The notes beneath the pieces are model-generated. The model ran no database searches, was not told the origin of the DNA, and saw only the letters and a program-made list of their open reading frames with translations. Below are positions 17,106 to 60,834 of a stretch of DNA of 64,000 bases, piece by piece. A program made the translations under genes and the position numbers. Origin of the DNA: a virus. Position 1 is the stretch's first letter; every line of letters begins with the position of its first letter. The stretch lies in IMG/VR virus record IMGVR_UViG_3300025263_000044, one strand, 5' to 3'.

Positions 17106-17885
17106 TTAAGCCGCGACTTCTGGGTCCCAGCCAATCGCTTTGTCGAAATCTTCCTGCGCCATCGGAACCCCTACACGGCAGATGCGAATAAACGCATGTC
17201 GAGCTTCGGCGGCGGTAGCGCTTTCAATGACGGTAATTGCGACGCGCGCTTCACGGAAGCGGTGGCCACAGTCATCCCAGAACTGCATGAAGTTGTCTAC
17301 CTCATCATCGCTGAAGCGACCTTCCCAGCTGTTTTTGATGCGTTCGCGGAACAGCTGCATTGCGGTTTTCTGGCTCTTGGCGCCATCCCTATCCAAGGAG
17401 GCCTGTTTCACGACCGTCCAGGCCGGCATGCGCAGGCCTACTTCCGCTTCGGCGGTCGGAACGAACTTGAGCGAGCGGCTTTCGAAATCCAGCACCAGCG
17501 TCTCGCCGGCGTACCATGTCGCCTGCTCAGCCTCCGAGGCGTCGGGCAGGTCCGGAGGTGTGTCGGTCAGCATCATCCAGGCCAGCGTAGCCAGGCGATT
17601 CTGGCCGTCCAACAGCAGACTGAAGGGGCGGTAACCCGTTTCATCCGCTGCAGCTGGAATCGGGCCAAGACGCGCTTTTGCCAGTTTGGTCAGGTCGGCC
17701 TTGGTGCCAGGTGCCCACAAGAGGAAGGCCCCGATGGGAAAGCCGCTGATGATGCTGTCGCACAGTGCTTCAACGTCTTGCTTGTGCCAGACATACGGGC
17801 GTTGCATCGCGGCCGGTACCGTGCGGCCAGCGGCCACGTCTTTGACCAGGCTGGAAAGGAAGCAGGAAGTTTGGTCGATTTTCAT
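17106..17885 (-). CDS. DUF262 (GmrS/ParB-like) domain protein, stand-alone
   Basis: MQRPYVW, LCDSIISGFPIGAFLLW, LLLDGQNRLATL, FIRI. Confidence 0.8.
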   Translation of the reverse strand: MKIDQTSCFLSSLVKDVAAGRTVPAAMQRPYVWHKQDVEALCDSIISGFPIGAFLLWAPGTKADLTKLAKARLGPIPAAADETGYRPFSLLLDGQNRLATLAWMMLTDTPPDLPDASEAEQATWYAGETLVLDFESRSLKFVPTAEAEVGLRMPAWTVVKQASLDRDGAKSQKTAMQLFRERIKNSWEGRFSDDEVDNFMQFWDDCGHRFREARVAITVIESATAAEARHAFIRICRVGVPMAQEDFDKAIGWDPEVAA

Positions 17886-18373: not shown

Positions 18374-18676
18374 TTATTGTGGGGGGCTGACCAGGAACAC
18401 TCCTGCAAAGCGCTGCACCCCCATCGCAGAAAAGCCATCGCCATGCTCCCATCCAGGCTCACCGTCGGCTCGATAGAAGCGTACTTTTGTTCGCTGCCAC
18501 TCTCCGAACCGGAGTTTAGAGGCGCCAACAATGTCTGCCTGAATATGTCGACCATCGAGTGCAATCGCAGTAACTCTCTCGGCCGAATGAGCCAGTTTGC
18601 CCAAAAGCCACCCACATAAAGCCAGTATGAAGAAAACTCCGTAGACGGAGAGTATTTTCAGGGTCAATTCGGTCAT
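18374..18676 (-). CDS. Small membrane protein
   Basis: N-terminal TM helix. Confidence 0.6.
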   Translation of the reverse strand: MTELTLKILSVYGVFFILALCGWLLGKLAHSAERVTAIALDGRHIQADIVGASKLRFGEWQRTKVRFYRADGEPGWEHGDGFSAMGVQRFAGVFLVSPPQ

Positions 18677-18693: not shown

Positions 18694-19338
18694 TTAGAGG
18701 TACCCTGCGTGCTGCAGCGCCTGGATGAAGCGTGGCATGGCGAGTGCCGTGCCGTATATGTACACCCGCCCCTTGAATTCACGCAAGCCGTAGGAGCCAA
18801 CTTCAATGCCGCCAATCAGCAAGTCCCACTGTTGCTCACCGCTTTTTTCCCGGGTCACAGTCACGGCTGTTTGTGCGCCGGCATGCATGGCCACGGATTG
18901 GAACATCTGAGCTTGGGTCTCCGTCAACGCGGATACCAAATCCATCCAGTGCGGAGCCTGGCTCGCGGATACGGGCATGAATACTTCCACTTTCATGAAG
19001 CCGTGCTGATGCAGCTCATCGAGGTCGTCGTCGCGCAGACACGGTGTCCAGCCGACATAGCCTGGCACACCTTCAGGCAGTTGGCCAAGCTCCCATAGGT
19101 ACAAGAAGCTTTGCTCACCCGAGGCCACAAACGAGCCATGCAAAGTCGGAATGTCCCGGCAAGCCTCCGGGCGCGTGGCGTCTGAAAACTCTTTCGGAAC
19201 CATCCACGGCAAATCCACGAACTCGAAGTCTTTAGACTGCCACCAGCGCAAGGCCAGGTGCAGCAACAACAGGCCGTTAGAAGGGAATGGGCCAGTGACG
19301 GCCTGCGCGCGGCACTCAGCGCGAGGTACGTTGTCCAT
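18694..19338 (-). CDS. Minimal class II aminoacyl-tRNA-synthetase-like catalytic domain
   Basis: Motif 2-like TPCLRDD..H...FMKVE; GIEVGSYG; motif 3-like YGTALAMPRF; no anticodon-binding domain. Confidence 0.6.
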   Translation of the reverse strand: MDNVPRAECRAQAVTGPFPSNGLLLLHLALRWWQSKDFEFVDLPWMVPKEFSDATRPEACRDIPTLHGSFVASGEQSFLYLWELGQLPEGVPGYVGWTPCLRDDDLDELHQHGFMKVEVFMPVSASQAPHWMDLVSALTETQAQMFQSVAMHAGAQTAVTVTREKSGEQQWDLLIGGIEVGSYGLREFKGRVYIYGTALAMPRFIQALQHAGYL

Positions 19339-19618
19339 TGTCGAATGCTCTCTTGGTGATTGCCGAAAAGGTCAGCAGGTCCTGAATCGTAGTCCCGGGC
19401 AAGTGGCGGTCCATGAAGGCCTGCACGGCTCCCATCATGTCCGACAGCTCAACTGCGGCCATGACACGGGACCCTTGTGCCATCGCATCTTCGAGCTCGC
19501 TCAGCTCTTCGCGGATTTTCGATAGTTCCCCCAGTTCGCCTCGAGGGATAGCAACCAGGTGGTAGCCGGGCTTTTCAAGGGAAGCGCCTGCGGGCTTAGA
19601 TTCGTGTGGCTTTGTCAT
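19316..19618 (-). CDS. MazG/HisE-like NTP pyrophosphohydrolase
   Basis: SKIREELSELEDA...VELSDMMGA fits the ExxE...ExxD motif. Confidence 0.7.
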   Translation of the reverse strand: MTKPHESKPAGASLEKPGYHLVAIPRGELGELSKIREELSELEDAMAQGSRVMAAVELSDMMGAVQAFMDRHLPGTTIQDLLTFSAITKRAFDNGQRTSR

Positions 19619-21284: not shown

Positions 21285-22381
21285 GCGGCAGCGAGTGCCC
21301 CGTAGTTCAGCACGTCATCGGAGTACCGACGGCGTACGAAGTGCACGGTAACTTCCGGCTCGTGCGTCCGGAAAACGAAAGTACCATGGTCGATGTTTAC
21401 GGCCTGCAGGTTATTCGCATCCAGGAGATAAGTCTTGCATTCGGTCAGACCGCCTTCTGGTTCTTCGCCGGTGCTGAACGAGTAGAACGACAGTTCTTCA
21501 CCCACCATCCCAAGCGGACTGCCGTCGACCGTGTCATGGCTCTGGCCGGAACACAGCAGTGGCTTGCCAGCGCGGTAGGCCTTTACTTCATATACGCCGC
21601 TATGCTCATGGTGCGGCCGCATATTGAGCATCTTCATGGCATCCTGGGCGGATTCCTTGTAGCGATTCATCTCTTCGACCAAGGCTTGAAGCATGTCGAA
21701 CGAGAAATCGTGGAAGAATGCGGAGACGGCGACCACGCCCGCCGAATCAGTTTTGTGTTCCAGCTTGTCTTCGCAGTACTCTTTGATGAACTCCTGCGAC
21801 AGGCCCGTGAAGTCCAGCGAGTAGTACAGACGGCCCGGGCGGTTAACCAGGTTGGTGTCGATGAGGTTGCGATTATTGCAAGTGAGCAGGAACAGCTTGT
21901 GCGAGCTGAATACGCCATCAAACAGCGTCAGCAGTTGGGCCTGCTCGTTGCGGTCGTAGACTTTCTCGAATTCGTCAAACAGAACAACTACAGCCTGGTC
22001 GATGCCGCCAATGAATGCGTTGAACTCATCACCGCGGAAATTTTCATTGACCACCAGGGTAGGGACTTGGTGCCGCTGCAGCGCCAACTGCGAGATGCGC
22101 TTTGTCAGCATGGTCTTGCCGGACCCCTTTTGTCCAGAAAGCAATACTCCGGTGCTGCCGGCGCGCGACCGGGCGGTATTCAGGATACGGTCCGCCTGGC
22201 GATTCACCTCTCCATACAATTTTGGCGGCAATTCGAAGTCCGCGATGAGGTCCACGTAATAGCCATGCACTTCGTTATGGCGAACCAGGTAAGTACCTGG
22301 CGGCAGGCTCTTTTCGATGGTCAGTTCGGCACTCGATGTAGGCCAGAAAGACTTACCCTCGCGGCGGTAGATACGCTTCAT
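21281..22381 (-). CDS. AAA+ ATPase (phage/plasmid type)
   Basis: Walker A GQKGSGKT, Walker B VVLFDEFEK, NRPGR. Confidence 0.85.
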   Translation of the reverse strand: MKRIYRREGKSFWPTSSAELTIEKSLPPGTYLVRHNEVHGYYVDLIADFELPPKLYGEVNRQADRILNTARSRAGSTGVLLSGQKGSGKTMLTKRISQLALQRHQVPTLVVNENFRGDEFNAFIGGIDQAVVVLFDEFEKVYDRNEQAQLLTLFDGVFSSHKLFLLTCNNRNLIDTNLVNRPGRLYYSLDFTGLSQEFIKEYCEDKLEHKTDSAGVVAVSAFFHDFSFDMLQALVEEMNRYKESAQDAMKMLNMRPHHEHSGVYEVKAYRAGKPLLCSGQSHDTVDGSPLGMVGEELSFYSFSTGEEPEGGLTECKTYLLDANNLQAVNIDHGTFVFRTHEPEVTVHFVRRRYSDDVLNYGALAAA

Positions 22382-22581
22382 CGCGTCCTCATTGTTGGTT
22401 CATGGAATAGATGGTACTATACTGTATAAACGCACTTCTGACAAGTCTTGCTTGTAAAAATTGACAAACTTTAGTTGTCATTTTCTGCATTTGCAGGTAT
22501 TTGTCAGTCTTCCATCAACCTCCTCGCCTCTATACTGATATGCAGCGAAATTGCTGTTTTCACTTAGAGGACATACTTAAC

Positions 22582-24927
22582 ATGATTACCAATATCCAAA
22601 ATCCATCGCTGGGCAAGCAAATGCTTTCCCAATCCAAGTTCTTCATGGGCTATTCCCGCTGGGTCGAAGGCGTTCAAGCCTACGAAACCTGGGCAGAATC
22701 CGTGTCGCGTGTGATGACCATGCACCGCAAGAAGTACACCGCCAAGATGTCGGCGAAGCTGGAAGCCTACATTGCAAAGGCACAAAAAGCGTACGAGGCC
22801 CAAAAGGTCCTGGGCGCCCAACGTGCACTGCAATTCGGCGGTGAGCAGCTCCTGAAACATGAAGCGAAGATGTACAACTGCTCCGTGTCGCATGCAGACC
22901 GTCCGGCCTTCTTCCAGGAGACCGAATACCTGCTGCTGTGCGGCTGCGGCGTGGGCTTCTCGGTTCAGTGGCGTCACGTGAAGAAGCTGCCACGCATCAT
23001 GGCGCGTTCGTCGGCTGACGTGAAGGTTTTCCAGATTCCCGATAGCATCGAGGGTTGGGCACAAGCGTTCGGCGTTCTGCTGTCGTCCTATTTCGAGGAT
23101 GGCGGCACGTTCCCTGAATACAAAGGCTACCGCGTGCTGTTCGACTATTCGCTGATTCGCGAAAAGGGCGCTCCGATTTCGGGTGGCTTCAAAGCCCCTG
23201 GTCCGGACGGCCTGCGTGCGGCGTTGGTGAAGTGCGAAGCTCTGCTGGAGCGTGCACTGCAGAATGCGGCTTACGCGCGAGCGGGCGAAATCGCGGTTGC
23301 GAACATCGCTGGCCTGCCAGAGCTGAAAATCGACCTGCCGAAGTTCGCCTCGGGTGAGACTCACTCGTACGACGATGCTGTTGGTGCGAAGCTGAAGCCT
23401 ATCGAAGTCTACGACTTCGTGATGCACATGTCCGATGCCGTTCTGTCGGGTGGTGTCCGTCGTTCCGCGACCATCTGCCTGTTCGACAAGTTCGACCTGG
23501 AAATGATGAAAGCCAAGACCGGTAACTGGCAGGTTGAAAACCCACAACGCGGCCGCAGCAACAACTCTGTTGTGCTGAAGAAGGATGAAATCAGCCGTGA
23601 AGAATGGGCTGAAATCATGCGCTCGGTTAAGGAGTTCGGTGAGCCTGGCTTCATCTTCGTCGACGACTTCGACTTTGCGTACAACCCGTGCGTTGAAATC
23701 GGCATGTTGCCAAAGTGCTTTGATACCGGCGAGTCTGGTTTCCAGTTCTGCAACCTGACCGAAATTAACGGCGGCCTGTGCGTGGATGAAGAAAGCTTCT
23801 ACGAAGCGTGCGAAGCCGGCGCCATCCTGGGCACCTTGCAAGCTGGTTACACCAACTTCAAGTTCCTGGGCGATGCGACCCGTCGCATTACCGAGCGTGA
23901 AGCGCTGATTGGCGTATCGATTACGGGCTGGATGAACAATCCGGACATCCTGTTCGACGAACGTATCCTCAAAAAGGGTGCCGAAATCGTCAAGGAGACC
24001 AACCGTATCATCGCTAAGCTGATTGGCATCCGTCCTGCGGCTCGTACCACCTGCGCCAAACCTTCGGGCAACGCGTCGGTGCTGCTGGGCACTGCATCTG
24101 GTATCCACGGCGAGCACTCCGAGATGTACTTCCGCAATGTGCAGATGAACATCGACGATGCGGTTGCGCAGCTGATTCAGAAAATCAACCCGAAAATGGT
24201 TGAGAAGAGCGTCTGGAGCAGCAACGGTACCGACATCGTGGTCAGCTTCCCGGTTATCTCGAAAGAGACTTCCGTGTACAAGGCCGACCTGATGGGCGTC
24301 AAGCAGCTGGAGTTCGTTAAGAAGGCTCAGCAACACTGGGTCGAGAACGGCACCAACGTTGACCTGTGCGTGCACCCGGCCCTGCGTCACAACATCTCGA
24401 ACACCATTTCGGTGGACGACTGGGATGCGGTGGAAGAGTACATCTTCAACAACCGTCAGCACTTCGCGGGCATCTCTCTGATGGCTGCGGCCGGTGACAA
24501 GGCTTACGCCCAGGCACCGTTCACTGAAGTCAATACGGCAGAAGAGATTCTGAAGAAGTACGGCGAGGCCAGCATGTTCGCTTCCGGTCTGATTGTTGAC
24601 GGCTTGCACGCCTTCAATGACAACCTGTGGCTGGCATGTGACACCTCGATGGGCAACGGCGAAACGCTGACCGATGACTCGCGTGATGTTCTCAAGCGTG
24701 ACTGGGTCCGTCGTTTCGGCAAGTTCTCCGACAACTTCTTCGGTGGCGACGAGCTGAAGGCTTCCTTCTGCCTGAAGGACTGCTACAACCTGCACAAGTG
24801 GGTCAGCATCCAACAGACGATGAAAGCCATCGATTTTGCTGAGGCACTGGCAAAACGTGCTGATGTGGACGCCGATACGCTGGGTTCCCAGGGCTGCTCT
24901 GGTAACGCATGTGAAATCGTCTTCTAA
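22582..24927 (+). CDS. nrdJ: Ribonucleotide reductase large subunit, class II (NrdJ/RTPR-like)
   Basis: GGVRRSATI, NPCVEI active site, FCNLTEIN, TTCAKPSGNAS, C-terminal GCSGNAC; no nrdB adjacent. Confidence 0.85.
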   Translation: MITNIQNPSLGKQMLSQSKFFMGYSRWVEGVQAYETWAESVSRVMTMHRKKYTAKMSAKLEAYIAKAQKAYEAQKVLGAQRALQFGGEQLLKHEAKMYNCSVSHADRPAFFQETEYLLLCGCGVGFSVQWRHVKKLPRIMARSSADVKVFQIPDSIEGWAQAFGVLLSSYFEDGGTFPEYKGYRVLFDYSLIREKGAPISGGFKAPGPDGLRAALVKCEALLERALQNAAYARAGEIAVANIAGLPELKIDLPKFASGETHSYDDAVGAKLKPIEVYDFVMHMSDAVLSGGVRRSATICLFDKFDLEMMKAKTGNWQVENPQRGRSNNSVVLKKDEISREEWAEIMRSVKEFGEPGFIFVDDFDFAYNPCVEIGMLPKCFDTGESGFQFCNLTEINGGLCVDEESFYEACEAGAILGTLQAGYTNFKFLGDATRRITEREALIGVSITGWMNNPDILFDERILKKGAEIVKETNRIIAKLIGIRPAARTTCAKPSGNASVLLGTASGIHGEHSEMYFRNVQMNIDDAVAQLIQKINPKMVEKSVWSSNGTDIVVSFPVISKETSVYKADLMGVKQLEFVKKAQQHWVENGTNVDLCVHPALRHNISNTISVDDWDAVEEYIFNNRQHFAGISLMAAAGDKAYAQAPFTEVNTAEEILKKYGEASMFASGLIVDGLHAFNDNLWLACDTSMGNGETLTDDSRDVLKRDWVRRFGKFSDNFFGGDELKASFCLKDCYNLHKWVSIQQTMKAIDFAEALAKRADVDADTLGSQGCSGNACEIVF

Positions 24928-59117: not shown

Positions 59118-60329
59118 CTACTTCCCCCAGGTGCTGACATTTTCCCGGGTAGGGCCATAGGAGCAGAACGCTACTGGCAGAATGCGAGCGTTGAGCGCCT
59201 GGACTTGGTCCGCCGGCGAAGCCGTATGAAGGATACCCGCTTCCCAGTAGTGTCCCTGCGCGCCCACCTGGTCCAGGCAGGTCACGGCCAGCATCGAGTC
59301 GATAGTCATAGCAGAGCCAGCTGCATCCGACATGTCATTCCGGATAGTCCTGGCCAGCAAATCATGGTCCAGGTACGCGAAGCGCAAGGTGCCCTGATAC
59401 TCGTTTGGCTGGTTGGTCAGGTCAACCACACCATCATACGGCCGGGTGTCCAGTTCTGCCGCGAGCGGGCCGGCACCATGGCGCGTCAGGTAGGCGCGAG
59501 TCACATAGACGACCTCCAACCTTTCAAAGCCCGCTTCGAGTGCCACATCAAGAGCATTCCGGATGCCAGTGTTTGAGCGAGTGACGAAGGGGAAGGCGCC
59601 GCGGGCCTGGTCCAAGAGCAGACCTTGGGCGCCTTCAAACACCACATTGCGGTGCCCAGCAAGCAGCTCAGATGCGGAGGATGCCAATTTGACGTCGGTG
59701 AAGAACTCTTGCGATGCCTTGATGAAGGCATCCACCAGAACATCCGACGTGCACAGTTCATGGTGAGGCCCAAAATCAGGTAAGCCCAGTTCCTTGCAGC
59801 GCGCCGGCAGGTGTTTATCTCGAATTTCTACCAGCTTCTCACGCAGAATGGTCACGTCGAGCAGGTCTTTGACTACCAGGTCGAATGCTTTGCCTTCGTG
59901 ACGACCAATCGTTTCACCGAAGCCCATGCCGCAGCTGCCGTGCCGGTTGTTGCCGCGGAAGTCTTCCACCAGCTGGTTGACCAGCATGTCAAAGAACGTG
60001 GTCACCGGCGCGCGCTCGTCCACATGGACGTATGGGATAAGCTGGCCGGGCAGCAGTTGCTGCAATTTCGCCCGCTCTTTCAAGAACAGGACTGGATTGA
60101 CGGCATAGTGCCGGGAAAGGTAGGTTTCGGCGCCGGCGAACGTGCCGCTACCGTAGTGGCTAAAGGCATGCCGCTTGCCATTAGCCGTGGTGACCGTGTG
60201 GCTAGCCTGGCATCCGCCATTGAAGCGTACAACAATGCTGTCTTCGCTCTTGGAGGCGAAATAGTCGGTCATGAGACCTTTGCCTTCATCGCCATAGTTG
60301 GCGCCGATGACCACGGTTGCAGTGCGCAT
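59118..60329 (-). CDS. purA: Adenylosuccinate synthetase-like protein (divergent, phage/mobile type)
   Basis: GANYGDEGKG, RFNGGCQASHTV, HGSCGMG, VFEGAQGLLLD, VTRSNTG, YLTRHGAGP. Confidence 0.85.
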   Translation of the reverse strand: MRTATVVIGANYGDEGKGLMTDYFASKSEDSIVVRFNGGCQASHTVTTANGKRHAFSHYGSGTFAGAETYLSRHYAVNPVLFLKERAKLQQLLPGQLIPYVHVDERAPVTTFFDMLVNQLVEDFRGNNRHGSCGMGFGETIGRHEGKAFDLVVKDLLDVTILREKLVEIRDKHLPARCKELGLPDFGPHHELCTSDVLVDAFIKASQEFFTDVKLASSASELLAGHRNVVFEGAQGLLLDQARGAFPFVTRSNTGIRNALDVALEAGFERLEVVYVTRAYLTRHGAGPLAAELDTRPYDGVVDLTNQPNEYQGTLRFAYLDHDLLARTIRNDMSDAAGSAMTIDSMLAVTCLDQVGAQGHYWEAGILHTASPADQVQALNARILPVAFCSYGPTRENVSTWGK

Positions 60330-60357
60330 GAACGTCCTTTGAAGACTGGTTGAGAAC

Positions 60358-60834
60358 TTATTGCTGATGCAGGGCAGGGCGGCCGTACTTTTGGCGGAAT
60401 TGCGCATCGACGTCCTGATACGCCGGCAGCGTTTTCATCTGCTCCAGCACATGGTCACGCAGCACCGGGCGACCATTGGGCAGGTCGGCAAACAGCTCGA
60501 AGCAAAAACCTTCCACTGGGCTCGGGTAGTCCGTGTATCGCTCAACGTAAATGCCGTTCGCTACTGCAGCGCGCACTGCGGCGGTGAGCTTGGTCGCCCA
60601 GGCCTTCCATTCGTCCGCCAGGGTGGTGCCAGCGGGGAGTAGTTTGGCTGCAGCATCCTGCCAAGCGTGCTCCACAGCCCACTCACCAGCGCTGGCTTTA
60701 CCCAACTCGGTATCGTCGGTGTCATAGATGATGGCACCATCGGCGGTGTATGCCGAGGTGGCCTTTGGGAAGCGCACGTGCACAAGCTCGCGCGCCAGTT
60801 CTTCCAGTTTCACACCTGGGCGATATCGTTCCAT
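60358..60834 (-). CDS. Hypothetical protein
   Basis: GAAGGAG RBS. Confidence 0.7.
   Translation of the reverse strand: MERYRPGVKLEELARELVHVRFPKATSAYTADGAIIYDTDDTELGKASAGEWAVEHAWQDAAAKLLPAGTTLADEWKAWATKLTAAVRAAVANGIYVERYTDYPSPVEGFCFELFADLPNGRPVLRDHVLEQMKTLPAYQDVDAQFRQKYGRPALHQQ

Follow-up and report, generated by a model that had tools for sequence, protein, structure and literature searches.

A 64,000-nucleotide stretch of viral DNA, IMG/VR record IMGVR_UViG_3300025263_000044 (the window), carries two overlapping minus-strand genes. The first encodes a 100-residue protein resembling the HisE/MazG-type nucleoside triphosphate (NTP) pyrophosphatases, and the second a 214-residue protein resembling the catalytic core of a class II aminoacyl-tRNA synthetase (aaRS) of the seryl type (SerRS). 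Both folds are known from other enzymes, and the pair is an uncharacterised variant of them. The linkage of the two genes is far above chance and near-obligate across viruses, bacteria and archaea. We favour, with about even confidence, the reading that they encode one two-part enzyme in which amino-acid adenylation would be coupled to cleavage of an NTP-type substrate, the acceptor being something other than canonical tRNA-Ser. The features of the pair are as follows.

19316..19618, minus strand: HisE/MazG-type all-alpha NTP pyrophosphatase-like protein, 100 aa (open reading frame, ORF; phrog_6408).
18694..19338, minus strand: minimal class II aaRS catalytic core of SerRS type, 214 aa (ORF; phrog_4806).
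19316..19338, minus strand: 23-nt overlap of the two reading frames, with likely translational coupling (ORF coordinates and junction sequence).

The overlap of 23 nt had been called in the original prediction, which was made from the sequence of the window, and the coordinates of the two ORFs agree with it, positions 19316-19338 being common to both. The junction at the start of the aaRS-like gene reads gacaATGgacaacgtacctcgcgcTGA; its ATG sits within the last codons of the MazG-like gene, and a purine-rich AAGAGAG lies 9-15 nt upstream of that ATG. The 23-nt overlap recurs in four other loci (L005, L201, L202, L203), one a metagenomic contig of identical sequence and the others relatives with 50-60% identity.

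The two genes had also been expected to be linked in other genomes, and this was found in phage and in cellular collections. Among GenBank phages, relatives of the core occur in 106 records and relatives of the small protein in 270, and the genes are adjacent wherever they were examined. The carriers are Vequintavirinae-type coliphages, phiCbK-like Caulobacter/Brevundimonas phages, Acinetobacter T4-like phages and jumbo phages. For IMG/VR, loci fetched through the core have the small protein within 2 kb in 80/80 cases, and loci fetched through the small protein have the core in 78/80, giving 158/160 for both directions together. Cellular loci from metagenome-assembled genomes (MAGs) carry both genes in 27 of 30 cases. 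Both gene orders exist in the phage loci, where the spacing seen most often is an overlap of 1-29 nt.

Natural fusions of the two proteins into a single polypeptide were found in 13 instances, four on phage contigs and nine in genomes of candidate phyla radiation (CPR) bacteria or DPANN archaea, with the core at the N-terminal side. A quick tree of the core, with 143 sequences, was used to read the history of these arrangements. The tree requires 11 or more changes of arrangement, compared with about 40 when the labels are shuffled; they include at least four fusion or fission events and at least five order flips, and the linkage is never lost. A conserved third subunit was considered and rejected: in neighbour counts over 116 non-redundant phage loci, no third gene cluster occurs in more than 14 of the 116.

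The 214-aa protein falls into phrog_4806 (E 3e-31), labelled 'histidyl tRNA synthetase' by PHROGs, and its only Pfam match is a sub-threshold one to tRNA-synt_2. An alignment of 68 relatives was used both for conservation and for AlphaFold2 modelling. Throughout these 68 sequences the class II signatures can be followed: motif 1 with a nearly invariant P44; motif 2, TPCxRxE with R102, followed by F114-x-K116-x-E118, where R102, F114, K116 and E118 are invariant; a block E179-x-G-S182-Y-G-x-R186, invariant or nearly so; and motif 3, Y-G-T197-A-L-A-x-P-R203, where T197 and R203 are invariant and G196 nearly so. No additional domain is present in the 214 residues.

The AlphaFold2 model of the core has a predicted local distance difference test score (pLDDT) of 94 and a predicted template modelling score (pTM) of 0.89. 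Its fold is the class II one, an antiparallel beta-sheet core with helices on its flanks. When this model was searched with Foldseek, the catalytic domains of SerRS and PylRS came out on top, with prob 1.0. An exhaustive structural comparison placed bacterial/mitochondrial-type SerRS first, with Z 17.3-18.9 and a root-mean-square deviation of 2.6-2.9 Å over about 195 of the 214 residues. Below it rank HisRS and HisZ at about 17 (HisZ 16.6-17.0), PylRS at 16.5, ProRS at 16.4 and Bll0957 at 16.1, and lower still AsnA (14.4 for the bacterial and 13.7 for the archaeal enzyme) and GenX (13.5). At Z>=8 there are 69 PDB representatives, and among the matches listed all are class II-type cores. The matches to SerRS are confined to its catalytic part (chain ranges about 150-480).

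At the sequence level, single-sequence PDB searches with the core, as with the small protein, were empty or gave noise; the family profile of the core matches SerRS chains in PDB at E 2e-5. A canonical SerRS profile was built from the SerRS genes of five module-bearing genomes and compared with the core profile by hhalign, which gave prob 96.6% and E 7e-10 across the entire core. The alignment pairs S73-G-E75 with the TxE loop of SerRS, and E118, E179/S182 and T197 with invariant SerRS columns; motif 2, the H-x-x-x-F-x-K-x-E strand, the E-x-x-S block and the motif-3 Arg are matched as well. NCBIfam, serS models included, gave no family for the core at E<=0.01, while canonical SerRS of similar genomes scores 370-441 bits. 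No sequence-level match of the core to AsnA was found. By fold and by aligned residues, the protein is a SerRS-derived class II catalytic core that still has the arginines of motifs 2 and 3 for ATP binding, the acidic and Ser columns for Mg-ATP, and the amino-acid pocket columns of SerRS type.

In Thermus thermophilus SerRS structures, two residues touch the seryl side chain, the motif-2-strand Glu and the Thr that precedes motif 3. Since both residues are conserved in the core, serine or a similarly small polar amino acid would be its likeliest substrate. Recognition of tRNA-Ser is another matter. The N-terminal coiled-coil tRNA-binding arm is absent, the core alignment beginning at SerRS column ~167-173. 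The motif-2 loop, which in SerRS contacts the tRNA acceptor end, carries an eight-column deletion in the hhalign comparison, by which the SerRS-invariant G272 and G277 are gone, and the second motif-2 Arg of SerRS (R280) falls on a variable column of the core family. Because of the lost arm and the shortened loop, canonical recognition of tRNA-Ser by the core appears unlikely. Isoelectric points are uninformative on RNA binding, as canonical SerRS is just as acidic. The original prediction had seen motif 2- and motif 3-like residues in this protein, had made its case depend on a class II aaRS fold and had regarded tRNA charging as unlikely. The invariant R102, F114, E118 and R203 confirm the first, the Foldseek and SerRS matches the second, and for canonical charging the missing arm, the short loop and the retention of canonical SerRS (below) agree with the third. 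Its interpretation is supported in part: fold and linkage hold, and the products it suggested, an aminoacylated or modified nucleotide, a modification of protein or DNA, or an ApnN or (p)ppGpp signal, are candidates.

The 100-aa partner belongs to phrog_6408 (E 2.5e-33), to which PHROGs assigns no function. Its alignment of 52 sequences has a mean column identity of 51%, and the metal signature EExxExxD...ExxD is intact: E37, E38, E41 and D44 together with E57 and D60 are invariant in all 52. The spacing from EExxE to ExxD is 16, and the superfamily signature is EExxE(12-28)ExxD. An N-terminal G-Y-H and a C-terminal T-x-R-A-F-x-N-G-R-R are also invariant. PRA-PH (HisE) is the only recurrent Pfam match, obtained for 43 of the 52 family members, in all cases at E 5e-4 or weaker. 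The AlphaFold2 model (pLDDT 87) consists of three helices behind an extended N-terminal segment, and its best fold matches are HisE/HISN2 (prob up to 0.96, template modelling score 0.47-0.55 over 55-59 residues), followed by iMazG/MazG, at Foldseek E ~0.4-3. A profile of the small protein found no relative in PDB by sequence. The protein is probably an active, divergent member of the all-alpha NTP pyrophosphohydrolase superfamily, and the earlier MazG-like call is supported by the metal motif, the sub-threshold PRA-PH matches and the ranking of the folds.

With HisE and MazG themselves, the small protein shares the EExxE...ExxD metal-binding motif and its 16-residue spacing, besides the modest fold matches and the sub-threshold Pfam ones. 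It differs from them in staying sub-threshold in Pfam, in having only three predicted helices, the first helix being replaced by a PGYH strand segment at the N-terminus, in its own C-terminal motif and in the lack of a histidine-pathway context.

The MazG-like domain was also followed through 120 longer proteins that contain it, only 10 of which are fusions to the core. In 81 of the 120, an N-terminal His-rich domain of ~180 aa (WFGLGFIQLK ... HDHRY ... FHR) is present (P0243, P0256, P0267 and 78 others, alignment A4; loci L008, L012, L052, L061, L090, L116 and L170). The aaRS-like core gene still adjoins these His-rich/MazG-like fusion genes in the loci examined. The His-rich domain has no significant match in Pfam, in a PDB profile search or in Atlas; an oxygenase (E 0.36) and Cupin_2 (E 0.1) are hints only. 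The module also occurs in fusions with AAA_28, the Pfam family to which the kinase domain of NadR belongs, and with a small radical-SAM/4Fe-4S domain, and one further protein has a weak LSM-like N-terminus (P0253, P0272, P0309).

In an exhaustive profile search, the core family comprised 1,622 clusters (50% identity); 1,122 of these matched at E<=1e-30. The family is discrete, in that canonical SerRS does not enter the cluster list at the search threshold. Among 185,579 species-representative genomes there are only 30 loci, nearly all in MAGs of Saccharibacteria, other CPR bacteria and DPANN archaea; a tblastn search of plasmids with the core gave no match. Each of the five module-bearing genomes that were tested also has a canonical full-length SerRS. 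The core therefore does not stand in for SerRS there, and the idea of such a replacement in organisms with tiny genomes was rejected. The rpoC-rpsL-rpsG-fusA region holds the pair, placed between rpsG and fusA, in at least five Saccharibacteria (L168, L171, L178, L185, L186), a position that marks it as a resident chromosomal gene. Ten Saccharibacteria-type loci have a wHTH(DUF7347)-Nudix gene of 230 aa divergent from the pair (e.g. L184:4927-5616, minus strand), whose product may be a regulator.

Annotation of the family is uneven. No model for either protein exists in NCBIfam or PADLOC, nor does one score above threshold in Pfam, and database labels for the core alternate between histidyl- and seryl-tRNA synthetase. 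No characterisation of the pair was found in the literature, where the two genes appear just as routine annotations, for instance 'seryl-tRNA synthetase' beside 'MazG'. The pair is not discussed in a jumbo-phage survey (PMC7824862), the RlaP preprint or the HIDEN-SEQ paper (PMC13716836).

Comparison with known systems helps to place the core. The SerRS catalytic domain is its best structural match and has the TxE-type loop, fRxE, HxxxFxKxE, ExxS and the Thr and Arg of motif 3 in common with it. Unlike SerRS, the core is half-sized, lacks the coiled-coil arm and the second motif-2 Arg, has a motif-2 loop eight residues shorter, falls below the NCBIfam serS models, coexists with canonical SerRS and is paired with a MazG/HisE-like protein. 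A precedent for a SerRS-like core freed from its tRNA arm is provided by the amino acid:[carrier protein] ligases (Bll0957/Atu2573), which charge small amino acids onto a non-tRNA acceptor. These are truncated homologues of methanogen-type SerRS, of ~300 aa, with an adjacent carrier protein as partner. The core resembles them (PDB 3mey) in standing alone without a tRNA arm and in fold (Z 16.1), whereas it is nearest to bacterial-type SerRS and its constant partner is a pyrophosphatase. No carrier-protein gene was found near the pair among the scanned neighbour clusters, none of which exceeds 14/116 loci. AsnA, EpmA/PoxA (GenX) and HisZ are likewise class II cores with non-tRNA roles (amidation, protein modification and regulation, respectively), and all were recovered as fold matches; they are weaker matches than SerRS and come from other synthetase lineages (Asp/Lys/His). 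To our knowledge, none of them pairs with a MazG/HisE-like protein.

In the favoured two-part enzyme, the core would use ATP to turn serine, or a polar amino acid about as small, into an aminoacyl-adenylate. From there the aminoacyl group would go to an acceptor that is not a canonically recognised tRNA-Ser. The partner would cleave the alpha-beta bond of an NTP-type molecule, which could be the precursor of the acceptor or a product to be processed, and the two proteins would work as a complex. A narrower version, to which we give a slim chance, is that the pair constitutes a new synthetase joining a small amino acid, probably serine, to a free nucleotide or to a metabolite derived from nicotinamide adenine dinucleotide (NAD) or ADP-ribose rather than to tRNA. 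Its product, a compound of aminoacyl-nucleotide type, would be used by large phages in infection and by CPR and DPANN cells in their reduced metabolism. The neighbours of the pair, which differ between lineages, hint at NAD, nucleotide or RNA-repair links.

Several observations weigh against the two-part enzyme. The likeness of the small protein to HisE/MazG is weak at Foldseek E ~0.4, and its Pfam PRA-PH score of 18.5 bits is under the 21.3 gathering cut-off. The MazG-like domain may be a general-purpose module, given its fusions to unrelated domains, and the one-enzyme reading is slightly tempered by the fact that this module combines with more than one enzyme. The SerRS-type pocket fits a tRNA or RNA-end acceptor equally well. 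The setting of the pair among rpoC, rpsL, rpsG and fusA in Saccharibacteria and the tRNA-repair neighbours (RlaP, RNA ligase) of some lineages count on the same side.

These last points bear on the rival that survives best, an RNA-directed split enzyme, which we regard as unlikely. The substrate aminoacylated by the core would be a tRNA (one of the phage, or one that is damaged or repaired) or a tRNA-like end, and the partner would replace the RNA-binding domain or process the RNA end, an arrangement likened to GlyRS alpha/beta or PylSn/PylSc. The SerRS pocket columns retained in the core, the PylRS catalytic domains among its best fold matches, the rpsG-fusA position and the predominance of large phages among the carriers are all consistent with such an enzyme. 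The neighbourhood of the pair includes genes for RlaP and RNA ligase in some loci, those of Vequintavirinae type among them. An RlaP-family RNA-repair nucleotidyltransferase is encoded two genes upstream of the pair in the Vequintavirinae-type phages (Cronobacter phage CR9, L002:571-1695). RNA-repair neighbours occur in just 6-8/116 loci (RNA ligase 6-8/116, RlaP 6/116), and the 64-kb window holds no tRNA genes. The core has lost the coiled-coil arm, its acceptor-end motif-2 loop is eight residues short and without the second Arg, and the six invariant acidic metal ligands of the partner are typical of a hydrolase, not of an RNA-binding module.

A role in NAD/ADP-ribose metabolism is decidedly unlikely. 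It would combine an ATP-dependent ligation or amidation with a pyrophosphate-releasing step feeding a nicotinamide mononucleotide adenylyltransferase (NMNAT), and would serve phages in rebuilding NAD after its depletion by host defence, and tiny-genome cells in NAD salvage. One neighbour that suggests it occurs in the closest relatives of the pair, Burkholderia-associated contigs of 130-700 kb. There, a NadM-type NMNAT gene without its Nudix half follows the core directly, with a 1-2 nt gap (L201:7662-8270, L202:7660-8259); the NCBIfam match (E 1e-40) spans the adenylyltransferase half only, and a 40-44-aa ORF comes next. Across the phage loci, NMNAT-like genes are found in 8/116, NADAR in 10-11/116 (11/116 at most) and AAA_28 in 3/116, which are raw counts and not enrichments. 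The fusion of the MazG-like domain to AAA_28, the wHTH-Nudix gene divergent from the pair in 10 Saccharibacteria loci, and the Nampt-like gene and NAD-dependent ligase in the window point the same way. None of these partner genes is universal, however, and no NadM-type NMNAT homologue is present in the 64-kb window. The SerRS-type alpha-amino-acid pocket columns favour an amino acid over a pyridine carboxylate, and the amidating AsnA (Z 14.4) ranks below SerRS as a fold match.

It is very improbable that the two proteins have separate jobs and are neighbours through co-regulation, the MazG-like protein cleaning or skewing the deoxynucleoside triphosphate pool and the core acting as a HisZ-like ligand-binding regulator. 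Regulatory paralogues such as HisZ have generally lost the catalytic arginines and metal ligands, and the core keeps them. HisZ is a good fold match to the core (Z 16.6-17.0), and the MazG-like domain does fuse to other domains. MazG-like genes are common in phage nucleotide-metabolism clusters (PMC7824862), and subunits of ribonucleotide reductase (RNR; 9-11/116) and deoxynucleoside monophosphate kinase (11-14/116) are frequent neighbours here. Recurrent independent fusions and a two-way co-occurrence of 98-100% are not expected of merely co-regulated genes.

Formation of Ap4N is a known side reaction of class II synthetases, LysRS, SerRS and others making Ap4A, and a lowering of (p)ppGpp has been reported for E. 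coli MazG. Most doubtful of all is the rival built on these activities, in which the core makes Ap4N by NTP attack on the aminoacyl-adenylate and the MazG-like partner hydrolyses Ap4N or (p)ppGpp: the ATP and amino-acid columns of the core and the NTP-pyrophosphatase motif of the partner are intact, but no result points specifically to dinucleoside polyphosphates (ApnN) or (p)ppGpp, and it would be futile to couple a synthase 1:1 to an enzyme that hydrolyses what the synthase makes.

Within the window, the pair stands at the end of a six-gene co-directional run: an AAA-ATPase gene (at 22381), a DUF1643 gene, two small membrane/lipoprotein-like genes, the MazG-like gene and the aaRS-like gene. 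This order is syntenic in L005, L201 and L202, and the run is divergent from a class II RNR gene. The transcription signals around it are the following.

22416..22444, minus strand: promoter-like site ahead of the AAA-ATPase gene (consensus match only).
18637..18650, minus strand: terminator-like hairpin, 44 nt past the stop codon of the aaRS-like gene (consensus match only).
18317-18289: promoter-like site for the gene set after the pair (consensus match only).

The hairpin after the aaRS-like gene and the promoter-like site for the next gene set suggest, as consensus matches, that the pair terminates its operon. In the operon next downstream, positions 17106-17885 (minus strand) encode a stand-alone DUF262/GmrSD_N protein without a nuclease domain, which matches the PADLOC candidate-defence models PDC-M55C (E 1e-18) and HEC-05. 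The window has many phage-type genes of nucleotide and NAD metabolism: those for RNR, the NAD-dependent ligase, the Nampt-like protein, a nuclease and a PurA/PurZ-like protein. The last of these, at 59118-60407 (minus strand), is a divergent adenylosuccinate-synthetase-like gene that matches phrog_1211 (PurZ-type family) and lies far under the NCBIfam cut-offs (PurA, 131 vs 402 bits; PurZ, 48 vs 300 bits).

A DNA-level search of the region found no close phage record. Its sole DNA-level (plasmid) matches are four ~800-kb Variovorax megaplasmids, at 78% identity over window positions 23411-24813. This segment lies within the RNR-like gene at 22501-24927 (plus strand), which is labelled 'recombinase' on the megaplasmids and here matches ribonucleotide reductase phrog_367 (E 1.5e-89).

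The tRNA-charging role implied by the database labels is probably wrong, and working out the product would correct hundreds of annotations. Such strict pairing with a pyrophosphatase, and fusion to it on repeated occasions, suggest one enzymatic activity, as yet unexplored, on a very old fold. Both proteins are small, soluble-looking and encoded by cultivable model phages, so that their function is directly testable. Conflict with host immunity is no more than one of the possible roles, since the pair is also a stable chromosomal gene beside ribosomal protein genes in Saccharibacteria. The family, with more than 1,600 clusters, spans rV5-like, phiCbK-like, Acinetobacter T4-like and jumbo phages, Saccharibacteria and DPANN archaea, and its product could reveal new nucleotide, NAD or RNA-end chemistry bearing on phage-host conflict and on the metabolism of ultra-small cells.

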